A stretch of DNA of 64,000 nt, taken from IMG/VR virus record IMGVR_UViG_3300045988_107309. The stretch is one strand, 5' to 3'. The position numbers and the translations under genes are program-made. Under the pieces are notes generated by a model, which had not been told where the DNA came from, did no database searches, and was given only the letters and a program-made list of their open reading frames with translations. Source of the DNA: a virus. Position 1 is the stretch's first letter, and the number at the start of each line of letters is the position of its first letter. Shown piece by piece: positions 15,562 to 56,583 of this stretch.

Positions 15562-17454
15562 ATGGCAAGTTTTGATAAGTATTCAAACTACAAAGACAAT
15601 GCCGGAGTGTCTGGTGTTGTTTTTGGTGCTGAAAAACCTATCCTTGAAGTAGAAATGAATGAGGTGCAGGAAGTTCAGAAGAGTATGCTCCGCAAAGCCA
15701 TTAAGAATCTTATGGGTGATGGTATCACTGACCTCAGTAAGATTGTGTATGAGGGTGGAGCAGTAAAAGTAAAAGAGGGTTGTGCTTTAGCAGTTGATGG
15801 TTACATGATTGAAAGCACTGGACTCTCTCTTACAGCTTCAAGCGGAACTGTTTATCTTCAAGTGTGGGAAGAGACAGCTACTTACAGTGACACACTGAAA
15901 GAGGAAGGAAATCAGCAGGATAGTGTTACTGTAGCAAACTGGTTTAAAGACAATCGTTCTGACGCAGAGACTTCCAGACGTAAGGTTGTTAAATACAATC
16001 TGGCTTCTTCTACAGACAGTAATAAACATAATCTGGCTATTGCAAGTGTAGCTGATGGTGTTATGACAAGACTGTGTAAGGAGATTAGCTTTAGCAGTCT
16101 TTCCAGTCAAGTGATTGACCTTAGAGTACAGATGGGTACTTACGGTGAGGGTGTTCTGGGTGTTGAAGTAGACCTTGAGAATAACTCTGTTGTAAGAACA
16201 GGTGACAATCAGTACTGGTCTCCGGGAGCAGATTATGACAACTCTCCTATCTATGGTGGTAGAAAAAGATGTGTTGTAAAAGATGACGGAACGATTGTAG
16301 CTTTCTATGGTGAAGAGGGTTACACAGAGACAGGTGCTTTGACTGTAGCAGTAGGAGAAAATGTAGTAGGTACTAAAGTACAGTGTATGGTTATGCAACC
16401 TGCTTTCTACTACAAGAGAATCCCTCTCAAACTTGAGAAACAGGTTGATGACACCTATCAAGTTAAAGGCTATCACATGACTAAGTGGGTTGACCTTATC
16501 AGTCCTGTAAGCAGAGACGGATTTAGTCTTCACCCGGCATTTAAGAAAGGTGACACAGAGATTGCTTACTATCTGATTGGAGAGAATGATGGCTGTCTTG
16601 AGAACTCAAGCGGTTATGATATGAATGACAACACTGTTACTCTTGGTTCTTCTCCTTACAGTGGTATTAAGATGGCTTCTATTGCAGGTGCTAAACCTGC
16701 CAGTGGTGCTTCTGCCGGAAGTACTAAGAACAACAGTCTTACAAGAGACGCAGTAAGAAAAGTGTGTGCAAACAGAGGAACAGGTTGGCAACAGCTTGAC
16801 TTCACTATTGCAAGTGCAGAGCAGATGTTATTCGTGGTAGAGTATTCTACTTTTAACATTCAAGCTATCACTACTTTCGGCAGTGGTGTTACAGATATGC
16901 CTTATGTAACTAATGTAAATGACTCCATTCCTAACCCGACTAACACAGCACTGGGTAATGGAAGTGGTAAGATTGAAGTTACTTACACACACTCCAATGG
17001 AACAGAGTACACAAAGTATGTTCCTGTTTACAGAGGTGTTAAGAATCCTTTCGGTAACATCTGGAAGTTTGTTGATGGTTTCCTTAGAAAACATTCTGCC
17101 GGAACTGATAAGAACGAAGCATTTTGGCAGGACGGAAGTAAAGCCTTTTCTGACGCTATTGCAGACTATATTGCCTGTGGATTTAGCTGTGCTACAGCAG
17201 AGGGTTATGTTAAAGCATTTGGTTATGATGAAAATTGTGACTGGTGCTATATGACCTCTTTAACAGGTGGAGACAGTAGCAAACCTGTAGGTGATTACTA
17301 TTGGGTTAATATGAGTAGTAATAACCTCTATATTGCCCTATTGGGTGCGTATTGGGATAATGGTGCGCAGGCTGGGTTGTTCTATTGGACTCTGCATGAT
17401 GTGGCTTCTTATCGTGATTGTATTATCGGCGGCCGCTTGTGCAGAAAAGCGTAA
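15562..17454 (+). CDS. DGR target protein: tail fibre / receptor-binding protein with C-terminal variable region
   Basis: 630 aa. The last ~35 codons match the downstream TR except at TR adenines. The C-terminus ..YWDNGAQAGLFYWT..GGRLCRKA looks like a C-type-lectin (CLec/FGE) fold. Confidence 0.85.
   Translation: MASFDKYSNYKDNAGVSGVVFGAEKPILEVEMNEVQEVQKSMLRKAIKNLMGDGITDLSKIVYEGGAVKVKEGCALAVDGYMIESTGLSLTASSGTVYLQVWEETATYSDTLKEEGNQQDSVTVANWFKDNRSDAETSRRKVVKYNLASSTDSNKHNLAIASVADGVMTRLCKEISFSSLSSQVIDLRVQMGTYGEGVLGVEVDLENNSVVRTGDNQYWSPGADYDNSPIYGGRKRCVVKDDGTIVAFYGEEGYTETGALTVAVGENVVGTKVQCMVMQPAFYYKRIPLKLEKQVDDTYQVKGYHMTKWVDLISPVSRDGFSLHPAFKKGDTEIAYYLIGENDGCLENSSGYDMNDNTVTLGSSPYSGIKMASIAGAKPASGASAGSTKNNSLTRDAVRKVCANRGTGWQQLDFTIASAEQMLFVVEYSTFNIQAITTFGSGVTDMPYVTNVNDSIPNPTNTALGNGSGKIEVTYTHSNGTEYTKYVPVYRGVKNPFGNIWKFVDGFLRKHSAGTDKNEAFWQDGSKAFSDAIADYIACGFSCATAEGYVKAFGYDENCDWCYMTSLTGGDSSKPVGDYYWVNMSSNNLYIALLGAYWDNGAQAGLFYWTLHDVASYRDCIIGGRLCRKA
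17335..17438 (+). repeat. DGR variable region (VR)
   Basis: 104 nt align without gaps to 17671..17774. There are 18 mismatches, 17 of them at TR adenines. Confidence 0.85.
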
Positions 17455-17630
17455 TCACTAAAAATATTGAAGAAAGGAGAAGCTATTCTTCTTTACAAAA
17501 CACTTCATAAAGGTTATAATGTAGTCGGTGAATGTAACGAAACACTACACCACCAAAACAGGTAAAGATTTGGGTTATAAGCGGTCAAGACATTACACAG
17601 ATATTCTCTTGCCACCAACAGTACACATGG

Positions 17631-17669
17631 AATACTTGGACACTCAGTAATTTGGGTGTTCCAAGTATT
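17631..17669 (+). other. 10-bp perfect inverted repeat abutting the 5' edge of the TR
   Basis: aatacttgga (17631-40) and tccaagtatt (17660-69) are perfect complements with a 19-nt loop. Confidence 0.6.
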
Positions 17670-17670
17670 T

Positions 17671-17774
17671 ACCCTATTGGGTACGAATTGGAATAATGGT
17701 ACGAATACTGAGTTGTTCTATTGGAATCTGAATAATGTGGCTTCTAATCGTAATTGTAATATCAGCGACCACTT
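17671..17774 (+). repeat. DGR template region (TR)
   Basis: Non-coding copy of the VR. It carries 31 adenines and, read in the VR frame, 10 AAT codons. It lies 229 nt upstream of the reverse-transcriptase ATG. Confidence 0.85.
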
Positions 17775-18003
17775 CACGGCACTGTACTCAGTTTCGGAAG
17801 TGTTTACTTTTGAAATAAATTAAAATCCGTGTAACTTCTTTACCTTACCTCTCTAACGTGGGTTAGGTCATTAGTGTTAAATGACACAAGTATGATGGTA
17901 GAACATATAGTGTTTCACGACAGCAATAAGTCTTGTTGGTAGCTGATGAAAGATTGTACACCTTTATAAGCGTTTGAAGATTAGACTTTGGAGTACATGG
18001 AAA

Positions 18004-19155
18004 ATGAAGCGTCACCTGTACCCTTTAGACCCTGTGACTGGGAAAGAAGATAGGACGCTTACAATATGGGAGAGAATTTGTTCCATAGAAAACTTGAGAC
18101 TTGCACACAAAAATGCGAGTAAAGGTAAACATTGGTACAAAGAGGTTCGTGACTTTGATAAAGACCCAGAGAAGTACTTGAAACAGATACAGGATATGTT
18201 AGTGTCAAGGACTTACTCACCACTTCCTTATGAGAGATTCACAAGAAAAGAACGTGGTAAAGAAAGAGTTATCTACAAGTCACGATACTTCCCAGAAAGA
18301 GTTATACAGTGGGCTGTCTTACAGGTTATATCTCCTATCCTCTTGAGACAACTTATCTATGACACATACTCGGCAATTCCAGATAGAGGTATTCATCTGG
18401 CATTTAAAAGAGTTAGGAGTGATATACAGAGTGATGTTGAAGGAACGAAGTACTGTTTAAAGATGGACGTTAAGAAATTCTATCCGTCAATAGACAGAGA
18501 AATTCTTCTGAATGATTATCACAGGATATTTAAAGATGAAGGACTACTGTGGTATCTCGATTTAAACATTACAAAGTCTCCCGATACTGGTATTCCGATT
18601 GGTAACTACTTATCACAATTCAGTGGCAACTTTTATTTATCACCTTTCGACCACTGGATAAAAGAAGTTAAGGGTGTGAAGTACTATTACAGATATATGG
18701 ACGATATTGTTATCCTCCATTCCTCAAAAGAGTACTTGCAAGAACTAAAATGGGAGATTATAAAATACATGAGGGAAGAAAGACACCTTACAATCAAGGA
18801 CAATTATCAAGTATTCCCTGTAGCAAAAAGAGGAGTAGATTTTGTCGGGTACAGAGTGTTCCCGGATTTTGTGTTATTAAGAGCGTCTACTGCTAAGAAC
18901 ATGAAGTCAAAGATGGCTAAGATTCTCAGAAAAGTAGAAAGCGGAACAGAAATGTCTTACTCTGATTATTGTTGTATCAATTCTTATAAAGGTTGGCTGT
19001 CATATTGCAATAGTTACAGATTGTACACTAAGTACTTTAAACCTTTAGAGAAACCTGTGGAGGAGTATTACAATAAACACTTAAAGAATGGAGGAAAGAA
19101 AGCCAATGAAAACAATGGAAAATGTTCAGTCAACAGTAAAACCAAAGGAAGTTGA
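18004..19155 (+). CDS. DGR reverse transcriptase
   Basis: YRYMDDIVIL (YxDD box), IGNYLSQFSGNFYL (a DGR-clade motif) and an adjacent TR/VR pair. The track ORF starts at 17974; the first ATG is at 18004. Confidence 0.9.
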   Translation: MKRHLYPLDPVTGKEDRTLTIWERICSIENLRLAHKNASKGKHWYKEVRDFDKDPEKYLKQIQDMLVSRTYSPLPYERFTRKERGKERVIYKSRYFPERVIQWAVLQVISPILLRQLIYDTYSAIPDRGIHLAFKRVRSDIQSDVEGTKYCLKMDVKKFYPSIDREILLNDYHRIFKDEGLLWYLDLNITKSPDTGIPIGNYLSQFSGNFYLSPFDHWIKEVKGVKYYYRYMDDIVILHSSKEYLQELKWEIIKYMREERHLTIKDNYQVFPVAKRGVDFVGYRVFPDFVLLRASTAKNMKSKMAKILRKVESGTEMSYSDYCCINSYKGWLSYCNSYRLYTKYFKPLEKPVEEYYNKHLKNGGKKANENNGKCSVNSKTKGS

Positions 19156-20938: not shown

Positions 20939-22378
20939 TTGACAAAACAGGAATTTATTCAACAAATTGCAAAGTATGTCAAAAAGTATGCTAACTCTTA
21001 TGGAATCAAGGTACACAGTCCTATTATTGCACAGGCAATCTTAGAAAGTGGTTGGGGTGAGAGTAGACTTGCTTCTCAATACCATAACTACTTTGGTTTA
21101 AAGTGTGGTACTAAGTGGACTGGAAAGAGTGTGAACATGACTACTCAAGAAGAGTATGAACCGGGAACACTTACCACAATCAAAGACAATTTCCGTGTGT
21201 ATGATAACATGGAAGAGGGTGTTAAAGGTTACTTTGAGTTCATTCAGTTAGCGAGATACCAGAATCTTAAAGGTATCACTGACCCGAAAAAGTATCTTGA
21301 GACAATCAAGGCTGATGGGTATGCAACAAGTAGTTCCTATGTAACTAACACTTACAAATTGGTGGAACAGTATAACTTAACTCAGTATGACACAGAAGGA
21401 GGAAGTAGTGTTATGGGTAAGACAGCACAAGACATTTTGAACGTAATGAGAAGTTGGCTTGGATTTAGTGAGTCCAATGGTAAATTCAAACAGATTATTG
21501 ACCTGTACAACAGTGTGAAACCTTTGCCGAGAGGTTATGCTGTAAAGTACACAGACGAGTGGTGTGACACTTGTGTTTCAGCCGCAGGAATTAAAGCAGG
21601 GTGTTCTGATTTAATTAGTAGAGAGTGTGGTTGTGAACAGCACGTTAAAATCTTCAAAGAAAAGGGAATCTGGATTGAAGATGGTACAATTACACCTAAA
21701 CCGGGTGATGTTATTCTTTACAACTGGGATGACGCAACTCAGCCTAATGATGGTTATTCAGACCACATTGGTTATGTAGAAGCTGTTTCTGGCAATACTA
21801 TTACTGTCATTGAGGGTAACAAGAATGAAGCAGTAGCAAGACGTTCCATTCCTGTAGGTTGGGGTTATATCAGAGGTTATGCAAGACCTAAGTATGCGTC
21901 TGGTGGTTCTTCTGTTACTCCTACACCTCCGAAAAAGACTATTGATGAAATCGCTCAAGATGTTATCAAGGGTGTTTATGGTAATGGTGACGCTCGTAGA
22001 AATGCTTTAAAAGCACTTGGTTATGACCCAGACGAGGTACAAATCAGAGTTAATGAGATTCTCAAAGGTAACTCTTCTAAACCGTCAATGAGTATTGTAG
22101 AAGTAGCTAAAAAAGTTATTGCCGGAGAATACGGTAATGGTTCTGAACGCAGAAAGAAACTTGCTTCTGAGGGATATGACCCTGATGAAGTACAGGCAGA
22201 AGTAAACAGACAGTTAGAGAACAAAGGTACTTCTGTTCAGTATTACACTGTACAGCCGGGAGATAATCTCACTGTGATTGCTAAAAAGTATGGCACTACA
22301 GTTAATAAACTTGTTAGCTTGAATGGTATTGCTAATAAGAACCTTATCTATGTAGGTCAGAAACTCAGAGTTAAATAA
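20939..22378 (+). CDS. modular endolysin: glucosaminidase (GH73) + CHAP + 2x CW_7 + LysM
   Basis: TTG start after AAAGGAGG. Motifs: [23 protein letters not shown] (GH73), EWCDTCV...DHIGYVE (CHAP), two [24 protein letters not shown] repeats (CW_7), and [18 protein letters not shown] (LysM). Confidence 0.9.
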
Positions 22379-38784: not shown

Positions 38785-39661
38785 TTTATTCCAGTCAGTG
38801 AAGCAGGAGGGGTATATTATCAAACCCCTCGACTTCTTTTTAGAGAAACAGGCAAATGCAGATAATGACCGGGCAGTAGATGTAAATGCTCCATCACAAG
38901 CAGGTCAGTGTATGCGACACAATTATTACATGAGAAAGAGATATGACTCAGATGGTGATATTGGTGCAAGAACACAGCGTATCTTTGATAATGGTACATA
39001 CACACATGAGAGACTACAGGCTTATCTTCTGGAAATGTTTTTGCTGATATGTGATGAAGTACCTCTGTTAGATGAAGAGTACAATATTCAAGGACACACT
39101 GATGGTTTTCTGGATTTGCCAGATGATGAAATAGCAATACTGGAAATTAAGTCAATCAATGACAATCAGTTTAACCAGTTGAAAGACGCTAAAGAGGAGC
39201 ATAAGCAACAGGGTCTTATCTATCTTTATTGTGCAGAGCAGAGAAGACTTGCTTTAAGGAAGAAGTATAAGACTCTGAAAGATTTCTATGCTTCACAGGA
39301 AGAGAGAGCAGAGTACTACAGGTCTAAGTATCAACACATGAAAGGTGGAAGAAAGTTTACCAGAGAACAGAAGATTCAGCATGAGGTAGACCTTAACTTG
39401 ATTTGTGATGATATTCTGTACCAGACGGATAAACCTATTACAAAGGTTATTTTTCTGTATGAGAATAAAAATAACCAAGAACTGAAAGAGTATGTTGTGG
39501 AGAGAAATAAGGTGACAGAACATATTCTTACAGGTGTTCTTAACAGATATGAAGAGTTGAATGAGTACTGTGAGGAAGAGGAAGTTCCACCAAGAGAGGG
39601 TACAAGCAAGTCTTGTCAGACCTGTAGATGGTGTCAGTATTCTCTTGAATGTTGGAGGTAA
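38771..39661 (+). CDS. Cas4/RecB-like PD-(D/E)XK exonuclease with a 4-Cys cluster
   Basis: GHTDGFLD, ILEIKS, an N-terminal Cys and a C-terminal CQTCRWCQYSLEC. Confidence 0.7.
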   Translation: MSLNSLFQSVKQEGYIIKPLDFFLEKQANADNDRAVDVNAPSQAGQCMRHNYYMRKRYDSDGDIGARTQRIFDNGTYTHERLQAYLLEMFLLICDEVPLLDEEYNIQGHTDGFLDLPDDEIAILEIKSINDNQFNQLKDAKEEHKQQGLIYLYCAEQRRLALRKKYKTLKDFYASQEERAEYYRSKYQHMKGGRKFTREQKIQHEVDLNLICDDILYQTDKPITKVIFLYENKNNQELKEYVVERNKVTEHILTGVLNRYEELNEYCEEEEVPPREGTSKSCQTCRWCQYSLECWR

Positions 39662-39666
39662 TTCCT

Positions 39667-40188
39667 ATGAGTGTGCTTAAAGAATGTCCTTCATTTAAAG
39701 GAGTCATATATGCTTCTAACAAAGGCAACATTTATAAGAAGAACTCTAAAGGAGTGTTGAAACCTTTGAAGCAGAGATATGATAAAGATGGGTATTTGCT
39801 TGTGTCCTTTAGAATAAATGGTGTTCCTTATACCAAAAAATCACATAGACTTGTGGCAGAAGCATTTATTCCTAATCCTAAAAATCTTCCCTATGTAAAT
39901 CATAAGAAAGGTAAGAAGGATAAAAATGTTCCAAGTAATCTTGAATGGTGTACTGCAAAATACAACAGGATTCATGCACATAAAAATGACTTAACTTTTC
40001 ACTATAAAATAACAGTGGTGAATAATTTAACTCTGGAAGTTTCGGTGTTTAACAGTTATTCAGAAGTTAAAAAGTTTATAGGGTGTAAAAATGAGTCAAT
40101 GGTGAAATACCTCTGTGATGTTGTTCGACCAGTTAGGGGTAAATATAAACACTTATCTTTTATAAGAGAGGAGGTTCATCATAAATGA
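39667..40188 (+). CDS. free-standing HNH homing endonuclease (NUMOD4 + HNH_3-like)
   Basis: HRLVAEAFIPNP...VNHKKGKKDKNVPSNLEWCT. ATG 39667 follows a GGAGG site. Confidence 0.8.
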   Translation: MSVLKECPSFKGVIYASNKGNIYKKNSKGVLKPLKQRYDKDGYLLVSFRINGVPYTKKSHRLVAEAFIPNPKNLPYVNHKKGKKDKNVPSNLEWCTAKYNRIHAHKNDLTFHYKITVVNNLTLEVSVFNSYSEVKKFIGCKNESMVKYLCDVVRPVRGKYKHLSFIREEVHHK

Positions 40189-42237: not shown

Positions 42238-42268
42238 ACTTATTATCAAATTGAAGGAGGATAACAGC

Positions 42269-43314
42269 ATGAAGGTAATTAAACCCTATCATCAACATTT
42301 CCCTAAAGAGGGAATGACACCCTACCAGTTTATTGAGAAGATTGGTAGAACCTGTTACAAGTCAGAGGATAAAATCACTAATGACAGTGCAGTGAAATTT
42401 GTGAAAGGACTGTGCAACAGAAAGCATTTTGCCATGATTGAGCATTATTGGGTACACATGAAATACACAGGTTCACATGAAGACTTAATGAAGGGTCTTG
42501 ATATGTTTGCAAGATGTGATTGTGCTTTAATGGGAGAATCTACAGATATTCTTCGACACGTTTATATTACGGACGTTTATGATATTTATATCTCAGCACC
42601 TTTAAGGGTATTCTTTGATATGGTGACAGCTTTGAGTGCCTATGACTTAAATACTGACCCAATCAACCATGTGGTAGATGAAATGTTGTCTTGTGTTGGT
42701 AATTACTTCCCAGAGATTTTCCCTCAGTGTTTTTCTTATAGGAATACAAGACATTTTCAAATTATGCCGGAGGAAGACTTTTGTGATGACTTATACAGAC
42801 AGCTTGCAGATAGTCCAAAAGGTATTAGAGAGCAGGAGATTATGAAACACTGCACACACACAGTTTTGTTTGTATGTGACAGAGGTGTTACACATGAGTT
42901 GGTAAGACATAGACCTTGTAGTTTTGCACAGGAGAGTACTCGTTACTGTAATTACTCACAGGGCAAGTTCAACAACGAAATCACTGTAATTCTTCCTTTC
43001 TTCTTTGATACCGGAATGGGAACAGCTTCTAACAGTACAGTACAGTATATGAAGCATGGAAATACTCTTGTGAAGTTGCCGAGAGAAAATATCTGGAACT
43101 CATTGGATATGGGGCAACACCGCAAGAAGCAAGAAGTGTTCTGCCTAACTCTTTAAAGACGGAAATCATTATGACTACTAATGAGACAGAGTGGCAACAC
43201 ATTGTCAATCTGAGAGCAAAAGGAACTACTGGTTCTCCACACCCTCAGATGAAAGAGATTATGCAACCGTGGTATGAAGAGTTGACCGAGTTATCAGAGG
43301 GGAGAATTAAGTAA
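42269..43314 (+). pseudogene. thyX: flavin-dependent thymidylate synthase ThyX, reading frame broken near 43046-43050
   Basis: The N-terminal part carries HELVRHRPCSFAQESTRY (RHR and SxRY motifs). The conserved C-terminus YEAWKYSCEVAERKYLELIGYGATPQEARSVLPNSLKTEIIMTTN continues in the -1 frame from 43033 to the stop at 43312-14. Confidence 0.75.
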
Positions 43315-45687: not shown

Positions 45688-46161
45688 ATGATGAAGTTAA
45701 AGAAGCGAACAACAGAAACAGGTCAAGAAACAAAGCAACAACTGGAAACAAAACACGAAACTCTTTCAAGACAGGGTAGAAATGCTAAGAGAAAAGGCGG
45801 TCAGTTTGAGCGTGATGTAGCAAAGAAATTCCAGAAGAGATATGGTGTTGAATTAAAAAGAACACCTCAGTCTGGTGGATTTGCTAAGAAGTCAGAGAAA
45901 GCTGATGACTTTAGAGGAGACATTACTATTGTAGACACTAAGCAGGTGTTACTGTTACATATCGAATGTAAGAATCAGCAGAAGTGGTCTCTCCCTAAAT
46001 GGGTAAAGCAAGCAGAAAGTGACTGTCCAGAAGGTCGTGTACCAATCGTGGTGTTCCATGAACACAATACCTCAAATGATTATGTCACTTTGAAATTAGA
46101 GGATTTCTTAGACCTCGTTCCGAAAGAGAAAGTTATTGGAAGGAGGACATTTAAGAAATGA
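45688..46161 (+). CDS. PD-(D/E)XK nuclease / resolvase-like protein (second copy of this type)
   Basis: ATG 45688 follows AAGGAGA. GQFERDV...SGGF..DFRGDI...HIECKNQQK. Confidence 0.45.
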   Translation: MMKLKKRTTETGQETKQQLETKHETLSRQGRNAKRKGGQFERDVAKKFQKRYGVELKRTPQSGGFAKKSEKADDFRGDITIVDTKQVLLLHIECKNQQKWSLPKWVKQAESDCPEGRVPIVVFHEHNTSNDYVTLKLEDFLDLVPKEKVIGRRTFKK

Positions 46162-46541
46162 TAGTTTTGAAGTGGCTGTTTTTTATTGTAGTAGGGGTTG
46201 TTATTGAACATTATGTTTTCCCACTTGTTAATGTGTGTGGTAACAGTATGCTCCCCACCTACCAAGATGGGGAGATTGTTTTTTCTACAAGGATTTTCAG
46301 AAAGAACAAAATCAAGCCGGGAGACGTTATGGTGTTTAGACACCCTACAGTAAGAAACAGACTGTTAATTAAAAGAGTAGATAAGGTGTTCAAGAATAAT
46401 CATGGTGAAATACAGTCCATATACTTCTTAGGAGACAATGCCCCAGACAGTTATGACAGCAGAAATTTCGGTTATGTTTTAATGAAAGACCTTGTTTCAA
46501 AAGTCATTAAACCAAGAAAGAAGGAGGACATTTCATTATGA
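46158..46541 (+). CDS. S26-family signal peptidase I-like serine protease
   Basis: N-terminal transmembrane segment, GNSMLPT (catalytic Ser), LIKRV (Lys) and GDNAPDSYDSRNFG. Confidence 0.65.
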   Translation: MIVLKWLFFIVVGVVIEHYVFPLVNVCGNSMLPTYQDGEIVFSTRIFRKNKIKPGDVMVFRHPTVRNRLLIKRVDKVFKNNHGEIQSIYFLGDNAPDSYDSRNFGYVLMKDLVSKVIKPRKKEDISL

Positions 46542-48706: not shown

Positions 48707-48982
48707 ATGAGTAATGAAAGTATTAAAGTACTGAGAATTTCCGGCTCGTCTCCTACAAAGGAGACTGCCGGGAGCATTGTTAAGACCTACGAAGCAGGTC
48801 ATACAAAGATTGAGTTAAGAGCCATTGGAGCGTCAAGTGTAAACCAGATGTTCAAAGCTATGGCTACTGCCAGTAGTATCTTTGCTCAAAAAGGAAAAGT
48901 CTTATCTTTTAGACCGGGATATGATGTAGCAGACATTGACGGTGATAAGACTGTGTTAATCGCAAGACTGATTGTGGAATAA
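48707..48982 (+). CDS. spoVS: SpoVS-like protein
   Basis: 91 aa. IKVLRISGSS..TAGSIV......IELRAIGASSVNQMFKAMA parallels stage V sporulation protein S. Confidence 0.65.
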   Translation: MSNESIKVLRISGSSPTKETAGSIVKTYEAGHTKIELRAIGASSVNQMFKAMATASSIFAQKGKVLSFRPGYDVADIDGDKTVLIARLIVE

Positions 48983-48998
48983 GAAAGGAGAATTTATT

Positions 48999-49520
48999 AT
49001 GTATTTTAAAGAAGCATTAGAAGCTATGAAACAGGGTCACAAAGTTAAACTCCCGTCATGGGGTGGTTACTGGTGTTGGGATAATGACAAACAGACCATT
49101 ATGATGTACTGTAAACAGGAAGACGTTGACAAGGGGCAGAAGTCACCTTTAGATATTCGTGAGACACAGAGGGTTGAATACACTCTCACAAATGTTCTCA
49201 GTGATGAATGGGTGATTGCAGATGAACACAACACTCCTTTAATGGGTGGTGTTGCAACATTCTCTTTCGGTGAAGCAATTAAGTACATGAAACGTGGATT
49301 GAAAGTGAAGCGTAAAGGGTGGAATGGTAAGAACCAGTACATTGAACTTGCTTCATGTATCAGCTACAAGAATCCAGAGGGTGACATTGTGAATGTTGAG
49401 CATGAGAACATTGGTAACAATGCTATTGCCTTTGTAGGCACATCTGGTGTACAGATGGGGTGGCTTGCCAGTCAAGCAGATATGCTTGCTGATGACTGGT
49501 GTTTTGCAAAGGAGGTATAA
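48999..49520 (+). CDS. tandem DUF2829 (Tad2-like) protein
   Basis: Two repeats: FKEALEAMKQGHKVKLPSW...LSDEWVIA and FGEAIKYMKRGLKVKRKGWNGKNQYI...WLASQADMLADDWCF. Confidence 0.7.
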   Translation: MYFKEALEAMKQGHKVKLPSWGGYWCWDNDKQTIMMYCKQEDVDKGQKSPLDIRETQRVEYTLTNVLSDEWVIADEHNTPLMGGVATFSFGEAIKYMKRGLKVKRKGWNGKNQYIELASCISYKNPEGDIVNVEHENIGNNAIAFVGTSGVQMGWLASQADMLADDWCFAKEV

Positions 49521-49521
49521 T

Positions 49522-49938
49522 ATGCTGACAGTTACAAAACACTTTGGATTTGAAGCGTGTCATCACCTCCCTTACTATGAAGGTGCTTGTCACAACATTC
49601 ATGGACACTCTTACAAACTTGATGTAACAGTTGGAGGTAATATCATTAAAGATACAAACAATCCGAAGTGCGGAATGATTGTAGACTTTAAAGACTTGAA
49701 GAAGATAGTCAAGGAGAATGTAGTGGACAAATACGACCACAGTAACCTCAATGACTTTTTTGAAAATCCCACTGCTGAAATTATGGTAGTGGATATTGCC
49801 TACTCAATCATGCAGAAGTTACCGAAGGAAGTGTACCTTGTGAGTGTGAAACTGTGGGAGACTGAGGACAGTTACGCAGAATATATTCCAAGCTATGACT
49901 ACATTCAGCCGGGAAGTATTTTAAAATCAGCAACTTAA
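49522..49938 (+). CDS. queD: 6-carboxy-5,6,7,8-tetrahydropterin synthase
   Basis: FEACHHLP....CHNIHGHSYKLDV. ATG 49522 follows a GGAGG site. Confidence 0.85.
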   Translation: MLTVTKHFGFEACHHLPYYEGACHNIHGHSYKLDVTVGGNIIKDTNNPKCGMIVDFKDLKKIVKENVVDKYDHSNLNDFFENPTAEIMVVDIAYSIMQKLPKEVYLVSVKLWETEDSYAEYIPSYDYIQPGSILKSAT

Positions 49939-49951
49939 AGGAGGTAAGACT

Positions 49952-50593
49952 ATGTTATACTATGATGAAATTTTCTGTAGCATACAGGGTGAGTCTACTG
50001 ATACTGGTCTTCCTTGTGTATTTATTCGTTTGTTTGGGTGTCCTATTGGTTGTTCTTATTGCGACCAACCTCAGAAGAAAGAGGACAGAAAGAGAATTTC
50101 TGTGGGTAACATAGTCCAAACAGTACTCAAAGAGTACAAGTGGTGTAAGAACATCTGCTTGACTGGTGGAGAACCTTTAATCTATGATGAAGCACTTCCA
50201 TTGGTATATGAATTACAATCACTGGGATTTAAAGTCTCCATTGAGACGAGTGGTTGTGTTCCTTTGGAAGAACCTTGTTACAGACGAAGCTACAAATATG
50301 TGATGGACATTAAAGGTCCTTCCAGTGGAGTGAAACACAAGAACATTTATGAGAATCTTTTAAAACTCCAAAACACTGACGAGGTTAAGTATGTCATCAA
50401 GGACAGAGAAGACTATGAGTTTATGAAGGGAGTAATGAAGAAATATCCTACTTCCGCAAAAATTCTTGTCAGTCCTATGTTTGACCCAGATGGAAAAGCA
50501 TACATTGGACATGAGTTAGTTGATTGGATTCTGGAAGACCATTTAGATGTTCGTGTGCAGATACAGCTTCATAAGATTTTGGAGGTAAAGTAA
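49952..50593 (+). CDS. queE: 7-carboxy-7-deazaguanine synthase (radical SAM)
   Basis: SIQGEST..GLPCVFIRLFGCPIGCSYCD. Confidence 0.85.
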   Translation: MLYYDEIFCSIQGESTDTGLPCVFIRLFGCPIGCSYCDQPQKKEDRKRISVGNIVQTVLKEYKWCKNICLTGGEPLIYDEALPLVYELQSLGFKVSIETSGCVPLEEPCYRRSYKYVMDIKGPSSGVKHKNIYENLLKLQNTDEVKYVIKDREDYEFMKGVMKKYPTSAKILVSPMFDPDGKAYIGHELVDWILEDHLDVRVQIQLHKILEVK

Positions 50594-50594
50594 T

Positions 50595-50864
50595 ATGGCA
50601 AAGCAATATAGAAAGAAACCAGTAGTGATTGAAGCAGTGCAATTTCTGGATAACCCAGAAAGACTTTGTGAGCTTTCGGAGTTTATCACTACTCAAGATT
50701 TAAGGGTTAATTATGAAGACCCAGAAAATCCTGTACTCAAGATTGAGACACTTGAAGGTGTTATGAACGCAAGTGTGGGAGATTATATCATCAAGGGTGT
50801 CAACGGAGAATATTATCCATGCAAACCAGACATTTTTGAAAAGACTTATGAGGAGGTGAAGTAA
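50595..50864 (+). CDS. hypothetical protein inside the deazaguanine cluster
   Basis: 89-aa ORF with a ribosome-binding site. Confidence 0.5.
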   Translation: MAKQYRKKPVVIEAVQFLDNPERLCELSEFITTQDLRVNYEDPENPVLKIETLEGVMNASVGDYIIKGVNGEYYPCKPDIFEKTYEEVK

Positions 50865-50865
50865 G

Positions 50866-50943
50866 ATGGCTTGCGGAACAAAAAGTAAAGGTGGAAGTAA
50901 GAAGGGTACTAAAAAAGGAAGTAAGAAAGGTGGTAGAAAATAA
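50866..50943 (+). CDS. 25-aa Lys/Gly-rich peptide (not in the ORF track)
   Basis: MACGTKSKGGSKKGTKKGSKKGGRK. GAGGAGGTG lies upstream, and its stop forms a TAATG overlap with the next gene. Confidence 0.3.
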   Translation: MACGTKSKGGSKKGTKKGSKKGGRK

Positions 50944-51269
50944 TGTATTCAAGACCAGTTGACCCAGAAGAATTGAAATGGCAGAGAAGGGATGACGCAA
51001 GAACCTTAGCCAGAGCAGAAGAAATCAAAGCAGACAAAGAAAGATATGATGGAGCTAAGATTGGAGCTAAAGAGATTTTAGCAGAAGAGACAGCAAGACT
51101 CAATGGACTGAATAAAGTAGCAGGAAGAAAACCTGTTAGAACATCACAGCCAGAAGAGAATAAACAGCAGAGAAACGTAGGTCAACCTCTTTATCATAAT
51201 CCGGTGAATAAAGCTAAACCTTCAAGAAGTTCTCTTCCGGCTGATATTCCAGATGTGTTTCGGAGGTAG
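50943..51269 (+). CDS. hypothetical protein inside the deazaguanine cluster
   Basis: 108-aa ORF. Confidence 0.45.
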   Translation: MYSRPVDPEELKWQRRDDARTLARAEEIKADKERYDGAKIGAKEILAEETARLNGLNKVAGRKPVRTSQPEENKQQRNVGQPLYHNPVNKAKPSRSSLPADIPDVFRR

Positions 51270-51272
51270 TTT

Positions 51273-51890
51273 ATGAAAGAAAAGATTGTTGTACTTAACA
51301 GTGGTGGCTTTGATAGTGTGTGTCTGTGCCACTATGTAAGAGACCAACACCCAGACGCAGAAATTCACTCCCTTCATTTTGAATATGGAAACAGAAATCG
51401 ACTCATGGAAACTTATTGTGCTAAGAAGGTGTGTAAGAAACTGAACATGATTTATCATAATGTGAGACTTGACCCTATTAGATGGACAGCAAGTACTCTC
51501 TATGGTAGAAAACACTCAGACCCAGATGGTGACGCTCAGTATTTAGAGTACCGCAATCTTATCTTCATGGCTTATGCTTCTTCTTTAGCACAAGGAATTG
51601 GTAGTAAGAAAATCTATGTAGCTGTGATTAAATCAATTCCGGGGCATGAATACATTGACTGTACTGGTGAGTTCTTTAATAATCTTGAGCAGGTGTTGAA
51701 AGACTCTGATATAAAGATTGAAACACCATTCATAGATATGGATAAATGGGATTTTAAAGATATAGCCAGACAGCACAATATTACTCCGGCAGATTTCTTT
51801 TCATGTAACGAGCCAACACTGAAAATTTTCCCTTGTGGGAAGTGTCCAGATTGTCTTGCACTTGAAGAAATTTATGGCGAAACGTATTGA
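51273..51890 (+). CDS. queC: 7-cyano-7-deazaguanine (preQ0) synthase
   Basis: PP-loop VVLNSGGFDS and a C-terminal zinc site C..CGKCPDC. Confidence 0.85.
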   Translation: MKEKIVVLNSGGFDSVCLCHYVRDQHPDAEIHSLHFEYGNRNRLMETYCAKKVCKKLNMIYHNVRLDPIRWTASTLYGRKHSDPDGDAQYLEYRNLIFMAYASSLAQGIGSKKIYVAVIKSIPGHEYIDCTGEFFNNLEQVLKDSDIKIETPFIDMDKWDFKDIARQHNITPADFFSCNEPTLKIFPCGKCPDCLALEEIYGETY

Positions 51891-52013
51891 CTTTGATAAG
51901 CTCCTCTGATATAGTAAGAGAAGGTTAAGAAAACGTACTTTAACAGGTGTTTATGTATATTCCCCTGTTATAAGAACACCCTTAATCAAATATACAAAAA
52001 GGAGGACGAAACT

Positions 52014-52160
52014 ATGATGAAAGCATACGCAGGTCCTAGCAATGGACGTAGTGGTGGTAATTCTACTCGTAGCGGTAGAGGTGGTAATGTTATTCAGAGA
52101 GCTGGAAGAGCTATCCGTAATGGTATTTCCAACGTAGTAAACCGTGTTCGTGGTCGATAA
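52014..52160 (+). CDS. 48-aa Arg/Gly-rich basic protein (not in the ORF track)
   Basis: MMKAYAGPSNGRSGGNSTRSGRGGNVIQRAGRAIRNGISNVVNRVRGR. It has an AAAGGAGG ribosome-binding site and its own terminator. Confidence 0.45.
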   Translation: MMKAYAGPSNGRSGGNSTRSGRGGNVIQRAGRAIRNGISNVVNRVRGR

Positions 52161-52185
52161 TCGTCACACAGCCAAAAGTAAGAGA

Positions 52186-52222
52186 GCATTGGGTTGACAA
52201 TAGGTTGACCCAGTGCTTTTTT
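52186..52222 (+). terminator. rho-independent terminator
   Basis: gcattgggttgac / gttgacccagtgc form a 13-bp stem (three G-U pairs), followed by TTTTTT. Confidence 0.65.
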
Positions 52223-52305
52223 ATGTTATATGAGAGTGTTACACACTTTTTTATTGACAAATATGTGGGTTAGTGATACGCTTTCTTTTATAAGGAGGTG
52301 TTATT

Positions 52306-52989
52306 TTGTCAGTAAAGATAAACTTGATTGGAAGACACTTTGATAGATTAAAAGTTATAAAAGAACTTCCATCAACAAGTGGAAACTCTTACTGGTTATG
52401 TAAGTGTAAATGTGGAAACACCTGTAGAGTTAGAGGTCAAAATCTCATAAAAGGTATAACTAAGAGTTGTGGGTGTTTAAGAACCGAAAAAACTATTGAA
52501 AGGAGTACTTCAAAAAACACCTATAAAAAATGTGGTGAATACACTTATGTTTATGACAACCTTGGCAATAAATGTATTATTGATACAGAAGACCTTGAAA
52601 AGATTAAGCCCTACTATTGGTCTAAAAGTGATGAATACTGGATAAGTCAACGAAGAGAACTACAGAATAGCAGACTTCATAGGTTTATCCTTGATTTCCC
52701 TAATTCAGAGGATGTAGACCACATTGACGGAGACACAGATAATAATAGGAAGTGTAATTTAAGACCGTGTTCTCATAGAAACAATTCTTTAAATCATAGA
52801 GTAGCTTCAAACAATACTACTGGTGTTACAGGTGTTGTTTATGTTAAAAGAACAGGAAAATATATGGCAAGAATAAAAGTTAAAGGTAAAGATATATTTC
52901 TCGGTTATTATCAAACTTTAGAAGAAGCCAGTAAGGTCAGAAAAGAAGCAGAAATAAAATATTTTAAAGAGTATAGGAGGATAAAATGA
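52306..52989 (+). CDS. HNH endonuclease with a C-terminal AP2 DNA-binding domain (homing endonuclease)
   Basis: TTG start after AAGGAGG. VDHIDGDTDNNRKCNLRPCSHRNN (HNH) and TGVTGVVYVKRTGKYMARIKVKGKDIFLGYY (AP2). Confidence 0.8.
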   Translation: MSVKINLIGRHFDRLKVIKELPSTSGNSYWLCKCKCGNTCRVRGQNLIKGITKSCGCLRTEKTIERSTSKNTYKKCGEYTYVYDNLGNKCIIDTEDLEKIKPYYWSKSDEYWISQRRELQNSRLHRFILDFPNSEDVDHIDGDTDNNRKCNLRPCSHRNNSLNHRVASNNTTGVTGVVYVKRTGKYMARIKVKGKDIFLGYYQTLEEASKVRKEAEIKYFKEYRRIK

Positions 52990-53558
52990 ATAGCTTAGAA
53001 AAGATTGAAAAAATTAAAAATCTTCTTGATGAAGTTATGGAAGTTCTTGAAATTAAACCCACGGTAAGTAATGAGGGAACAAGCAGAAGAGTGGCTAAGA
53101 TGTGGGTGAATGAGTTATTTGCAAATGTGAATGACGCTCACATGAAGGAGTTAAAGGAGACCATGACTACCTTTCCGAATGAGTATGAGAGTGAAATGGT
53201 GATTGTAAGGGATATTGAATTTAACTCTACTTGTGAACACCACTTTTTACCTTTTTCCGGCAAAGTTACGATTGGATATGTTCCGAGTGATACTATCATT
53301 GGACTGTCAAAACTTCCAAGAGTGGTGAAGTATTTCAGTAAAAGACCACAGTTACAGGAGAAGCTGACTACAGAGATTGGAGAGTTCCTGTTTAATATGC
53401 TTGAACCTCATGCACTCTTTGTGGAAGTTGAAGCTACACATCAATGTGTGAAGTGTAGAGGTGCAGAAAGTGATTGCAGTACAGTTACTTATTTCAGAAG
53501 AACTCAGCCGGGATTTGAAGATAGTTATGGTGAGTTTAAAGAGAGAAGAAAGGGGTAA
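52986..53558 (+). CDS. folE: GTP cyclohydrolase I
   Basis: STCEHHFLPFSGKVTIGYVP..IIGLSKLPRVV..SKRPQLQEKLT. Confidence 0.85.
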   Translation: MNSLEKIEKIKNLLDEVMEVLEIKPTVSNEGTSRRVAKMWVNELFANVNDAHMKELKETMTTFPNEYESEMVIVRDIEFNSTCEHHFLPFSGKVTIGYVPSDTIIGLSKLPRVVKYFSKRPQLQEKLTTEIGEFLFNMLEPHALFVEVEATHQCVKCRGAESDCSTVTYFRRTQPGFEDSYGEFKERRKG

Positions 53559-53564
53559 CAGAAT

Positions 53565-55631
53565 ATGCCTAAATTAAAGCTGAAAAAGGCAAAGCCTACA
53601 AATACTCAAGAGACCTCTGGAAAGTCCAAATTTAATGAAATTACGAATAAAGAAGACCATTCCCAGAGTAAGCCACAATCTTTGTGGGATATTGTAGACC
53701 ATGAACAGGACTTTCATATGTTGTATTCTGGTGTTGAAGATGAAAGAAACTTTGACATTCTTTATGGAATGGGTATCAGAAACTTTCTGGTGTCTTATCA
53801 GTATGTGCAGAACAAACACATGAATGTAGATAAGTTTAGTGGTTTGGGTATTAAGTTCTTTGTTGACTCTGGTGCTTATACTTACCGGAATGATTTAAAG
53901 TATGCAGAGTTTACTATTGAAGACTGGGAGAAACAGATTGAGAGATACTTAAAGTGGGCGAAGAAGCATAAGGATATTATCTTTGCTATTGCCAATCTTG
54001 ATATTGAAGGTCATGTTGAGCCGGAAATTGTTCAACAGTGGAATGAAAAGTACTTTGAGCCTTTCATGTTAGAGACAGGTATCCCAGTGTGCTTCATTTA
54101 CCATGAGGGTGAAACCTCAAGAACATGGGAACAGTATGCACAGCGTTATCCTTATATTGGTATGCCTTGGGAGTTTGACTCAAGTGACGGAGAGAAAATC
54201 TGCCGGGATAGACTGAGAATAGCAGAGAAGTACAACACAGTAGTACATGGAATGGCTATGACAAAGACCTCTCTTTTAACCTCCCTCCCTTTCTACACAG
54301 TGGACTCAACCACATGGCTTGTTGGTTTACAGTATGGTGAAGTCAATTACTGGACTGGTAAAAAGATGACTCGTTTAAAGAAAGACAAGTGGAAAGGTAA
54401 TATGCTTCCGAAACTTGTCTCTCTGGGATTTGATGAACAGAAGCTACTTGAAGAGGACAACACTGAAATGATTAAGGTGAATGTCCATGCGTTTATTGAA
54501 GCAGAAGAGTACATTCAAAAACAGTGTAGGGCAAGAATGTATTGGTTAAGACCTAAAGGAGCAAAGAGAACAGAAGCAGACCTTGACTCTATCGAATATC
54601 CCACACCGGAATGGCTTGATGACCCAGACACTCAAGATATTGAGTGGGAGAAGTATGCAGAGTTATTTAATATCTCTAAGGAAGACAGAGTACAGGCTTT
54701 AAACTGTGTGATTGATATGACCTGTTTTATGAATTGGGATAACCCAGATTATGCAGACTTCATAAACAGAGTTTATACACCGGAGACTGTTAAAGAAATC
54801 CATGACCTCTTCATTAACAGGATAGTTCAGAGTGATGAAGAGAGGGTGACTGACCTTATCAAGTTCTACAAAGAGAACCTTTTAGGTGAGAGTGATAAGC
54901 TGTTACTTCTCGGCACTAATTTTGACAGAGTAGTAAAGGAACGTGAGACTTATATTACTGATGATGAATATGAGACTGAGGACGTTACTGAAATGGAAGT
55001 TCTCAATGTTCTTTCAAAATATCTGCCGGAGAATACTGACAGTGAAGCACCAGAGATTGACTCTTTAGATGATGAAATATTTGCGGAAGAGGGAATCATA
55101 CCTATTCGTGATGAACATGGACACTTCCTTAAAGGTCAGAGACAAGTGTTGAAGCCTAAAAAGATGTATTCAAAGAAGTTCCCTAAACTGGCTTGTGACA
55201 CCTGTTATGCGGCTCAGAAATGTCCAGAATATAAAGCCGGATTTGCTTGTGCCTACAATAAGATTTTTGATAAGTTTGACACAAGGGATATGGGTGATAT
55301 TATTCAAGCTATGCAGGGTATTGTGGACTTCTCACTGGGAAGATTACAAAGAACCATGATGTTTGAAATGCTTGAAGGTGGACTGCCAGACCCGAATGTG
55401 TCTGCTATGATGGACCAGTCTATGAGATATTTAGGACAGCTTAAAGCTATGTATGAGAATGGAAGTACAGAAGTTCTCAGACAAACCAAAATTCTCAGAA
55501 GTGATGGTACACAGGAAATGACTACTCAAGTCACGAACCCACAACGTGGAGGAATTTTAGAGAAAATTTTCGGTGACTTAGGTAAGAGTGATGAAGATAA
55601 AAAAGAAGATATAGTGGACGCTGATATTTAG
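53565..55631 (+). CDS. dpdA: DpdA-like DNA transglycosylase fused to a long C-terminal region
   Basis: The N-terminal ~330 aa has LYSGV...GIRNFLVSYQY...FFVDSGAYTY, resembling TGT/DpdA. The C-terminal ~350 aa is acidic and contains CDTCYAAQKCPEYKAGFAC. Confidence 0.6.
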   Translation: MPKLKLKKAKPTNTQETSGKSKFNEITNKEDHSQSKPQSLWDIVDHEQDFHMLYSGVEDERNFDILYGMGIRNFLVSYQYVQNKHMNVDKFSGLGIKFFVDSGAYTYRNDLKYAEFTIEDWEKQIERYLKWAKKHKDIIFAIANLDIEGHVEPEIVQQWNEKYFEPFMLETGIPVCFIYHEGETSRTWEQYAQRYPYIGMPWEFDSSDGEKICRDRLRIAEKYNTVVHGMAMTKTSLLTSLPFYTVDSTTWLVGLQYGEVNYWTGKKMTRLKKDKWKGNMLPKLVSLGFDEQKLLEEDNTEMIKVNVHAFIEAEEYIQKQCRARMYWLRPKGAKRTEADLDSIEYPTPEWLDDPDTQDIEWEKYAELFNISKEDRVQALNCVIDMTCFMNWDNPDYADFINRVYTPETVKEIHDLFINRIVQSDEERVTDLIKFYKENLLGESDKLLLLGTNFDRVVKERETYITDDEYETEDVTEMEVLNVLSKYLPENTDSEAPEIDSLDDEIFAEEGIIPIRDEHGHFLKGQRQVLKPKKMYSKKFPKLACDTCYAAQKCPEYKAGFACAYNKIFDKFDTRDMGDIIQAMQGIVDFSLGRLQRTMMFEMLEGGLPDPNVSAMMDQSMRYLGQLKAMYENGSTEVLRQTKILRSDGTQEMTTQVTNPQRGGILEKIFGDLGKSDEDKKEDIVDADI

Positions 55632-55684: not shown

Positions 55685-55706
55685 ATTGAAAGAAAGGAGT
55701 GTTTCT

Positions 55707-55916
55707 ATGAAGTTAGAACCAGTTAAAAAGGAAGACCTGCTCACTGAGTTAGGTAAAAACAGTCGGCTTATTAAACTGACAGTAGACGCAAAGAAATCTA
55801 TTACAAAAGAAGTTGGAAGTATTCCAGTAAAAGAGGTTATTGAGAGCATAGTAAGTCCTAAACCGGAAGAGTTCTTCTTTAAAGTGATTGAGGAGGAATA
55901 TAATGAGCAAAGCTAA
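55707..55916 (+). CDS. hypothetical protein
   Basis: ATG 55707 follows AAAGGAG. Confidence 0.45.
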   Translation: MKLEPVKKEDLLTELGKNSRLIKLTVDAKKSITKEVGSIPVKEVIESIVSPKPEEFFFKVIEEEYNEQS

Positions 55917-56583
55917 ATTTTACTCCATGACAAAACCTATTCCATTTAGAAAGACCCGACTTTTTCTGAGAAGGGTGAAGGACTCCATTACCTCTTTAAT
56001 ATATAATATATTATATAGATTTAATATAATAGAAAAATATAGTTTTAATGACGTAATGCGGAATGGAGTGCCAGTCACAATTCCACCTTCAAAATTTGAG
56101 TCGGGCTGTATAAGTGCCACTTTAGAGTTTAATGTAGAACACACTGATATAGTAAATGAGTGTTACTATCACAAGAAAGGTGACAGACTCAATAAGCTGT
56201 ATGTAGTTATGGACAGTCATCTGCATGAGTTACATATCACTGCACACATGACTAACATTGGTATTAAAATGCCAGACGGAAAGTTCCAGTATGTGAATGA
56301 AGGACTTCCAGTGTTTAGAGTCCATGTGAATGATGAACCATTGAAACCTTTTAATGAGAGTGAGGAACTTCAACCTATTAAGTATCACACTAAAAAGGTT
56401 AATATGAGAAAATTGCAGTCTTTGAGGTTCTGTCATTCAAAGATAGTATCTGAGTACTATTTAGATGAATTAAAAGAAGGTATCTTTGAAGGACTATTTG
56501 CTACAGCAAGAGACCAGTTTACATTTGCTTTTGTCAACTACTTCCGGGAAGTTAAATTGCATGATTTATTTGAGGAGGAATAA
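55903..56583 (+). CDS. hypothetical protein
   Basis: ATG 55903 follows GAGGAGG. Confidence 0.45.
   Translation: MSKAKFYSMTKPIPFRKTRLFLRRVKDSITSLIYNILYRFNIIEKYSFNDVMRNGVPVTIPPSKFESGCISATLEFNVEHTDIVNECYYHKKGDRLNKLYVVMDSHLHELHITAHMTNIGIKMPDGKFQYVNEGLPVFRVHVNDEPLKPFNESEELQPIKYHTKKVNMRKLQSLRFCHSKIVSEYYLDELKEGIFEGLFATARDQFTFAFVNYFREVKLHDLFEEE

Follow-up and report, generated by a model that had tools for sequence, protein, structure and literature searches.

A complete preQ0 pathway and a long-form DpdA-type transglycosylase in a BCD7-like phage predict 7-deazaguanine in its DNA

Escherichia phage CAjan (Seuratvirus, Queuovirinae) encodes FolE, QueD, QueE and QueC together with a DpdA transglycosylase shown to insert preQ0 into DNA, and this tested phage carries 2'-deoxy-preQ0 (dPreQ0) (PMC6884629). 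On the bacterial side, the crystal structure of Salmonella Montevideo DpdA is a TIM barrel resembling tRNA-guanine transglycosylase (TGT), with a large insertion after the nucleophile strand and with Asp95 and Asp256 as general acid/base and nucleophile (PMC10164549). The bacterial Dpd enzyme requires the ATPase DpdB and is followed by DpdC, which leads to the amide dADG; neither protein is present in the phage treated here. Bacillus phage BCD7 is listed among the phages with DpdA plus FolE, QueD, QueE and QueC (Hutinet et al. 2019, Supplementary Data); its DNA is not known to have been analysed chemically. Here we describe a cluster of the same type at positions 49,522 to 55,631 of IMG/VR record IMGVR_UViG_3300045988_107309, of which a stretch of 64,000 nucleotides, hereafter the window, was analysed. 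The cluster quite probably directs the exchange of some guanines in the DNA of this phage for a 7-deazaguanine, of which dPreQ0 is the simplest candidate.

In BCD7 (Becedseptimavirus), genes gp21-gp28 run in the order QueD, QueE, a small open reading frame (ORF), QueC, small basic ORF(s), FolE and a long DpdA, and the cluster in the window runs in the same order. The arrangement QueD-QueE-x-QueC-x-FolE-DpdA recurs in BCD7 and in about 60 metagenomic relatives, whose contigs measure roughly 80-90 kb, and it is kept in every related metagenomic locus that extends far enough upstream. The arrangement of the cluster is far above chance. Both phages also carry, upstream, genes for a signal-peptidase-like protein (46158-46541 in the window) and for SpoVS (48707-48982). 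The resemblance lies at the protein level, where BCD7 and the window phage share only about 35-47% identity with no nucleotide-level match, and when the cluster was compared by megablast with 50,697 phage records nothing matched either. BCD7 is the nearest isolate (41.6% identity in the transglycosylase and 38% in DNA polymerase), and judged by such proteins the source phage is distantly related to it. Metagenomes hold hundreds of homologues of the transglycosylase; their contigs are about 80-90 kb long, and a human gut label is attached to one or more of them. BCD7 differs in lacking the 108-residue ORF, the HNH insertion and the Tad2-like gene described below, in having two copies of the basic ORF, and in the length of its DpdA (757 residues, against 688 here). 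The CAjan cluster is likewise interspersed with small unassigned ORFs, but these are acidic and unrelated to those of the window; its genes also stand in another order and include a YhhQ-like transporter, and its DpdA of 306 residues lacks the C-terminal 350-residue extension and the four-cysteine (Cys4) cluster of the protein described here. By the tested sequence criteria, the cluster belongs with the DpdA plus preQ0 systems such as that of CAjan, with the BCD7 cluster as its nearest described relative. It is set apart by a long-form DpdA with a Cys4 domain, an embedded homing endonuclease and a conserved basic gene preceded by an undescribed leader.

The four biosynthetic genes and the TGT/DpdA-like gene, which a preliminary description of the window had named, are all intact ORFs on the + strand. 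QueD (6-carboxy-tetrahydropterin synthase, 138 residues, 49522..49938) matches PF01242 (PTPS) at 6e-32 and TIGR03367 with 89.5 bits against a cut-off of 89.25, and its ATG at 49522 is also the start used in orthologues. QueE (7-carboxy-7-deazaguanine synthase, 213 residues, 49952..50593), a radical S-adenosylmethionine (SAM) enzyme by family, matches TIGR04349 (4e-56), phrog_2076 (9e-36) and Radical_SAM (2e-12) and shows the CxxxCxxC motif as CPIGCSYC. QueC (7-cyano-7-deazaguanine synthase, 205 residues, 51273..51890) covers profile positions 1-202 of 210 of PF06508 (1e-31), with an SGGFDS PP-loop and a C-terminal Cys4 cluster (CNEPTLKIFPCGKCPDC). FolE (GTP cyclohydrolase I, 190 residues, 52986..53558) has the CEHH motif and matches PF01227 at 5e-48; its NCBIfam matches, at 1e-45 to 4e-47, fall slightly under the cut-offs of the FolE models. 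All four proteins pass their Pfam gathering scores, while of the NCBIfam equivalog cut-offs only that for QueD is exceeded; QueE, QueC and FolE fall short of theirs, as divergent phage versions usually do. The module is present and intact, with recognisable families, shared synteny and conserved motifs, and the predicted preQ0 pathway is complete, comprising four full-length enzymes with their cofactor and active-site motifs.

From the named families, and from the experiments on CAjan, 9g and Salmonella DpdA, we infer the chemistry of the module, the inserted base, the catalytic roles of residues and a role against restriction. FolE would convert GTP to dihydroneopterin triphosphate, QueD would yield 6-carboxy-tetrahydropterin, QueE would form 7-carboxy-7-deazaguanine by radical-SAM chemistry, and QueC would turn this acid into the amide and then into the nitrile preQ0. 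The 688-residue DpdA would then act on double-stranded phage DNA once this has been replicated, putting preQ0 in the place of guanine by a TGT-type double displacement in which Asp247 would be the nucleophile and Asp101 the general acid/base. DNA modified in this way would be shielded from host restriction.

The last gene of the cluster (53565..55631, +) encodes the predicted long-form DpdA-type DNA guanine transglycosylase of 688 residues, of which residues 48-678 match phrog_887 (1.9e-75), a family annotated as 'queuine tRNA-ribosyltransferase'. A family profile built from 79 homologues that share 21-61% identity with this protein aligns with CAjan DpdA by hhalign at 99.1% probability (E 8e-19, 189 columns), and the aligned motifs of the family and of CAjan DpdA correspond as DSGA/DSGAF, VHGMA/LHAFG and YTVDSTTW/YSCDSSSW. 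Residues D101-S102-G103, D146, H228-G229 and D247-S248 are at least 90% conserved among the 79 homologues. These motifs stand in the same order as in Salmonella DpdA, and from that order D101, D146, H228-G229 and D247 are inferred to correspond to Asp95, Asp130, His181-Gly182 and Asp256 of the bacterial enzyme. A large insertion past the nucleophile strand is likewise common to the two proteins. The AlphaFold2 model begins with a basic disordered N-terminus (residues 1-45), continues with alternating strand and helix elements that form a TIM barrel (residues 45-330, nt 53697-54554; predicted local distance difference test score, pLDDT, 80-95 over most of it) and has a well-modelled helical region (residues 340-450), after which comes a variable acidic stretch. 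Foldseek against BFVD returned phage 'queuine tRNA-ribosyltransferase' models at E 1e-9 to 5e-5, with template-modelling (TM) scores of 0.55-0.76 on the target. The preliminary description had taken this ORF to be DpdA-like and had made that reading hang on TGT-fold catalytic residues in a model. The modelled barrel, the retained Asp and His-Gly motifs, the CAjan profile match and the synteny with BCD7 all agree with it.

A number of results weigh against this assignment. Pfam TGT (PF01702) was matched neither by the 688-residue protein nor by the 79 homologues, at E up to 1e-3, and sequence and profile searches of PDB chains with the protein found no match. The family profile aligns with E. 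coli TGT in the DSGG motif only (E 0.07). Foldseek against PDB placed TGT (3bll) at rank 2, with a weak E of 1e-3 and among generic TIM barrels. The C-terminal 350 residues, the Cys4 cluster included, are poorly modelled by AlphaFold2. Because the direct tests against TGT failed, the link to DpdA rests on the CAjan profile match and the BFVD fold matches. The subfamilies DpdA2, DpdA3 and DpdA4 are typified by nt-1/VH7D, CP220/phiST and HVTV-1, as distinct from the 9g/CAjan type. The tblastn matches include annotated DpdA genes of Mycobacterium, Klebsiella, Pseudomonas and Rhizobium phages, and none of the named organisms is Vibrio, Campylobacter, Cellulophaga or a halovirus. The His-Gly motif, whose His is missing from DpdA2, is present as H228-G229, and the published compilation (Hutinet et al. 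2019, Supplementary Data) enters the BCD7 protein under DpdA and not under DpdA2. The sequence link to phage DpdA is solid, and the protein is probably a long form of the DpdA/DpdA1 lineage.

The same results bear on whether the module acts on DNA at all. FolE, QueD, QueE and QueC are also the ordinary precursor pathway of tRNA queuosine, and the transglycosylase belongs to the TGT superfamily, so the module could be imagined to boost or hijack queuosine-type tRNA modification during infection. The transglycosylase nevertheless matches CAjan DpdA and not tRNA TGT, no QueF, QueA, QueG or QueH was found in the window, and the window holds no tRNA genes; a role in tRNA modification is therefore highly improbable.

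Beyond the barrel, the 688-residue DpdA has a Cys4 cluster, C544/C547/C553/C562 (nt 55194-55250), in its conserved C-terminal domain; the cluster is invariant in 40 of 40 close homologues and in BCD7. Its spacing, CxxC-x5-C-x8-C, differs from the zinc-site pattern of Salmonella DpdA and is unlike the CxCxxC...H of TGT; it lies about 300 residues past the nucleophile, in a region with pLDDT below 50. The domain is common to BCD7 and Streptomyces phage homologues and is absent from the 306-residue CAjan enzyme; it may form a zinc site, bind DNA or confer specificity. The C-terminal half has no PDB match, and its weak matches to phrog_6902 'terminase small subunit' (6e-4) and Pam3_gp59 (4e-4, under the cut-off) are not interpreted. 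In four clusters of DpdA homologues (P0238, P0239, P0241 and P0256; 891-1152 residues), inteins of about 170-450 residues are inserted exactly within the nucleophile motif, at VDS|TTW; the insert of P0238 starts with Ser and ends in HN before Thr. Insertion at this point fits a functionally critical site. An intein is also found in the NrdD of a related locus (L011, 2389-5637), where it carries a LAGLIDADG endonuclease.

Which base would be installed depends on what, if anything, acts on preQ0. The preliminary description had noted no QueF, ArcS or amidotransferase and had named dPreQ0 as the simplest prediction. Pfam scans of the 81 ORFs of the window bear this out, with no amidotransferase, ArcS-type, methyltransferase or formyltransferase domain. 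QueF models gave sub-threshold matches only, all of them on FolE (PF14489 at E 2.9e-4, 21.4 bits against 27.3; TIGR03139, 31.1 against 86.9), as is expected because the two families share one fold. General Pfam scans of the same ORFs, in which no dedicated models were used, gave no sign of DpdL, DpdM or DpdN, and the 205-residue QueC has no Gat domain. What would mark a tailored derivative (dG+, dPreQ1, mdPreQ1, fdPreQ1 or dDG) was not found within the window. On present knowledge this gene set predicts dPreQ0 (PMC6884629, PMC10516641), which we keep as the default because no downstream tailoring enzyme is present; with a plain QueC and no known tailoring domain in the scanned ORFs, it is also the simplest prediction. 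Phage MED16, which has dADG, was considered as a counter-example to this rule and rejected, since it encodes only dpdA.

Other observations count against dPreQ0 as the final base. The window covers all but about 20 kb of a genome of roughly 85 kb, so that about a quarter of the genome lies beyond it. In three loci whose DpdA is 72-77% identical to that of the window, QueC is fused to a MoaA/SPASM-like radical-SAM domain to give proteins of 546-548 residues (L009, 761-2407; L010, 6157-7803; L011, 7321-8961), and two of these loci, L009 and L010, have an FMN-reductase/flavodoxin-like gene between FolE and DpdA (9484-9999 in L010). Two further loci, L012 and L013, have a different QueC of 250 residues. 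The loci with the fusion may encode a route to an as yet undescribed 7-deazaguanine derivative. Since the final-base step varies within the clade, unrecognised tailoring is possible in the window phage as well, for example by the larger of two conserved ORFans just 3' of DpdA. These encode 76 residues (55686-55916, +) and 231 residues (55888-56583, +); they are syntenic in relatives, and their membership of the module is uncertain. Neither has a Pfam, PHROG or PDB match, and the 231-residue protein, considered as a hidden tailoring enzyme, has only seven homologous clusters and gave a low-confidence AlphaFold2 model (pLDDT 54.6) without a Foldseek fold match.

These data define an alternative in which the DNA is modified and the final base is not dPreQ0. 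It could be the amide (dADG) or the acid (dCDG), should QueC stop early or DpdA favour a different substrate, or else a further derivative produced by some protein not recognised as an enzyme, the 231-residue ORFan and the 108-residue ORF being examples. The lability of the QueC step among the siblings and the conserved ORFans flanking DpdA speak for it, as do the promiscuity of DpdA2, which accepts preQ0, preQ1 and CDG, and the unknown substrate of DpdA3 (PMC10516641). Yet the QueC of the window is full length with both its PP-loop and its Cys4 site, the scanned ORFs hold no known tailoring domain, the ORFans have no detectable enzyme fold, and CAjan, tested with the same gene set, carries dPreQ0. 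We consider another final base unlikely, and dPreQ0 remains our prediction.

The remaining ORFs within the cluster, of 89, 25, 108 and 48 residues and one HNH ORF, were also recovered where the preliminary description had placed them. It had called the last an HNH-AP2 endonuclease; the HNH part stands (HNH_3 at 1.6e-5), whereas the AP2 part, a matter of C-terminal appearance only, was unconfirmed by Pfam. The HNH ORF (52306-52989, +; phrog_374 at 8e-39) lies in an insertion (52231..53087, +) that includes a co-converted 5' end of folE, so that 857 bp replace 131 bp of the related locus L002. Its protein is found in 3 of 12 close metagenomic relatives (L003, L009 and L010), where it is 97-99% identical while the flanking genes are 45-94% identical, and its gene is absent from the nine others and from BCD7. 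Because its presence is sporadic and its near-identity is irrespective of flank divergence, we regard the gene as a selfish mobile homing endonuclease of predicted cleavage activity and not as part of the pathway; it would have landed between the terminator of the small basic ORF and folE. A second HNH_3-like ORF lies elsewhere in the window, at 39649-40188 (E 7e-4).

The 89-residue ORF (50595..50864, +) is a widespread small phage domain (phrog_419 at 9e-37, and also the N-terminal part of phrog_4159) without Pfam or PDB match. It occupies a variable slot, which in L005-L008 holds instead a Cys4 ORF of 63-68 residues. The gene for the 25-residue Lys/Gly/Ser-rich peptide (50866..50943, +) is kept as an ORF of 22-29 residues ending in KKGGKK in L003, L007, L010 and L012 and is absent in L002, L004 and L013. 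The 108-residue ORF (50943..51269, +) has a conserved N-terminal half and a variable C-terminal half, and each of the 12 close metagenomic relatives carries it between its QueE and QueC genes (44-100% identity); it has no Pfam, PHROG or PDB match and no motif, and its 115 matching protein clusters appear to come from this clade only, on long contigs of about 80-90 kb. The ratio of nonsynonymous to synonymous substitution rates is 0.14 for the 89-residue ORF, 0.10-0.12 for the 25-residue ORF, 0.19-0.54 for the 108-residue ORF and 0.14-0.49 for the 48-residue ORF, and length changes in the 25- and 48-residue ORFs come in multiples of three. As these ratios lie below 1 (about 0.1-0.5), the four small ORFs are judged to be real genes; those of 25, 48 and 108 residues were met in this clade only. 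None has the size or the sequence features of an enzyme, and the two basic peptides, of 25 and 48 residues, most likely bind nucleic acid. The suggestion that any of the four might modify the base further is unsupported: the 25- and 48-residue peptides are low-complexity and basic, the 108-residue protein has no family, and the slot of the 89-residue ORF is variable.

The 48-residue Arg/Gly-rich protein (52014..52160, +) has N-terminal M-M-K-A-Y-A-G and C-terminal NVVNRVRGR, and its orthologues are encoded in the interval from QueC to FolE across the clade, as well as in BCD7. They share an N-terminal motif, (M)-hydrophobic-K/N-A/V-Y/F/H-A, followed by Gly-rich sequence, and the ORF is duplicated in L008, L025/L028, L032, L063 and BCD7. 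In the window it is preceded by a strong consensus ribosome-binding site (AAAGGAGG) and, further upstream, by a promoter-like site, TTGACT-17-TATAGT with an upstream TG (51887..51915, +), which is a consensus match only, of a kind not enriched in the region (31 found against 27 expected). Relatives have the same promoter-like arrangement upstream of the orthologous ORF. Downstream lies an intrinsic terminator (52179..52223, +) with a 20-pair stem followed by a T run, and most relatives have such a stem, with different but mutually complementary sequences. The 3' arm of this terminator contains TTGACC, the -35 element of a promoter-like site for HNH, FolE and DpdA, 17 nt from TATATG here and TATAAT in L002; one hairpin may thus both end one transcript and form the -35 element of the next unit. 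The 48-residue ORF is therefore predicted to form a self-contained unit of promoter-like site, leader, ribosome-binding site, ORF and terminator.

The roughly 85-nt leader of this unit (51916..52013, +) is structured according to a covariance model. It consists of an outer helix, P1 (51923-51929/51981-51987), an inner hairpin, P2 (51941-51947/51964-51970), and a pseudoknot (51955-51961/51989-51995) in which the P2 loop pairs with bases just 5' of the Shine-Dalgarno sequence (52000-52005). The model, built on four close sequences, matches the same place in 14 loci at E 4e-21 to 0.02. In P1 and P2, 96.9% of cells are paired, with compensatory changes on both sides in 11 of 12 pairs and none of 500 shuffles scoring as high, in an alignment that was fitted to the covariance model and so is biased towards structure; slid controls paired in 19-55%. 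In the pseudoknot, 56 of 56 cells pair in eight sequences aligned in a hand-set register, double-sided changes occur at five of seven positions, and none of 5000 shuffles did as well, while shuffles of the loop sequence by sequence gave p 0.005-0.09. A second subclass, read by eye, has the loop motif CCTTTGTT, which is complementary to AACAAAGG, a stretch within the Shine-Dalgarno sequence. In BCD7, the leader of the small basic ORF gp24 (L001, ~7770-7853) also looks pseudoknotted by eye, as GTAGT...GCGTTA...ACTAC...TAACGC; it was not detected by the covariance model, and its sequence differs from the gut-phage leaders.

No Rfam family matched the leader, whether the window was searched at gathering score, the leader at E up to 10, or eight relatives. 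The preQ1-I, preQ1-II and preQ1-III riboswitches (RF00522, RF01054 and RF02680) were considered for the leader and rejected, as their covariance models did not match. The topology does resemble that of preQ1-II and preQ1-III, which we take to be HLout-type pseudoknots of Firmicutes in which the loop pairs 3' of the enclosing helix, near or including the ribosome-binding site; we treat this as a lead only. The genomic context, 7-deazaguanine metabolism, is common to both, but the gene under the leader here encodes a small basic protein, unlike the transporter or que gene of preQ1 riboswitches. Outside the clade, a search with the pattern AATTGGATT..GTTT..TTCC returned 120 stretches in genome contigs and 120 in viral contigs; none of the 160 examined as loci (80 + 80) scored with the covariance model, and the matches are taken as chance, the pattern being too loose.

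Three roles can be envisaged for the leader, namely sensing of a ligand, autoregulation through binding of the basic protein, or simple stabilisation by its fold. The first of these belongs to a wider proposal, in which the 48-residue protein and its leader are a functional part of the modification system, the RNA sensing preQ0 or an intermediate and the protein acting as a DNA-binding helper of DpdA or as a packaged DNA-condensing protein. In favour of it, the interval from QueC to FolE holds a basic ORF of this type in the window, in BCD7 and in relatives with DpdA identity down to 34%, which together give 40 distinct leader/ORF variants, and covarying helices with a pseudoknot that abuts or, in one subclass, includes the Shine-Dalgarno sequence are typical of translational riboswitches. 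However, the leader is unlike preQ1-I, -II and -III or any Rfam family, the pattern search did not find it beyond the clade, so that its linkage to the module may merely have been inherited as synteny, the structure is explained equally well if the basic protein regulates itself, as in ribosomal-protein leaders, and the CAjan cluster has no such basic ORF. The proposal is rather unlikely. In its more specific form, which is speculative and rather doubtful, a cis-regulatory RNA of a new class would lie at 51916-52013. This RNA might be a riboswitch that responds to preQ0 or to some other 7-deazaguanine intermediate, and it would gate translation of a small DNA-binding protein that aids the long-form DpdA or enters the virion together with the modified DNA. 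If true, this reading would give the BCD7-like deazaguanine module a regulatory or accessory layer not described for any DpdA system.

The rest of the window is phage DNA with nearly all genes on the + strand and a G+C content of about 38%. Its genes for sheath, tube and baseplate are of the myovirus type. An endolysin with glucosaminidase, CHAP, CW_7 and LysM domains (20939-22378), together with the SpoVS and signal-peptidase-like genes, hints at a Gram-positive (Bacillota) host. Directly upstream of QueD, at 48972-49520, lies a gene for a 182-residue protein with two Tad2-like domains (PF11195, Thoeris anti-defence 2), which occurs in some relatives only (L002-L006 and L013). A diversity-generating retroelement occupies 15562-19155. 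Its reverse transcriptase is encoded at 17974-19155 (RVT_1 at 5e-17), and its template repeat (17669-17774) is 83% identical to a variable repeat (17333-17438) at the 3' end of a 630-residue tail-fibre-like ORF (15562-17454), with A in the template copy at every mismatch. A ThyX-like ORF of 301 residues (42251-43156) matches the Thy1 profile only in residues 191-245, the Thy1 proteins of relatives being 326-351 residues long, and may be divergent or disrupted.

With this cluster, DpdA plus preQ0 hypermodification would reach into a large clade of uncultured, myovirus-like phages with genomes of roughly 85 kb. Many restriction enzymes would fail on DNA modified in this way, and analyses that depend on sequencing or on enzymes could be distorted. 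As QueC occurs at one and the same position in plain form, fused to a radical-SAM domain or as a different protein of 250 residues, the clade amounts to a natural experiment and is a good place to seek further 7-deazaguanine derivatives, and its small basic gene, with the leader that precedes it, offers a testable candidate for a regulatory or accessory component.

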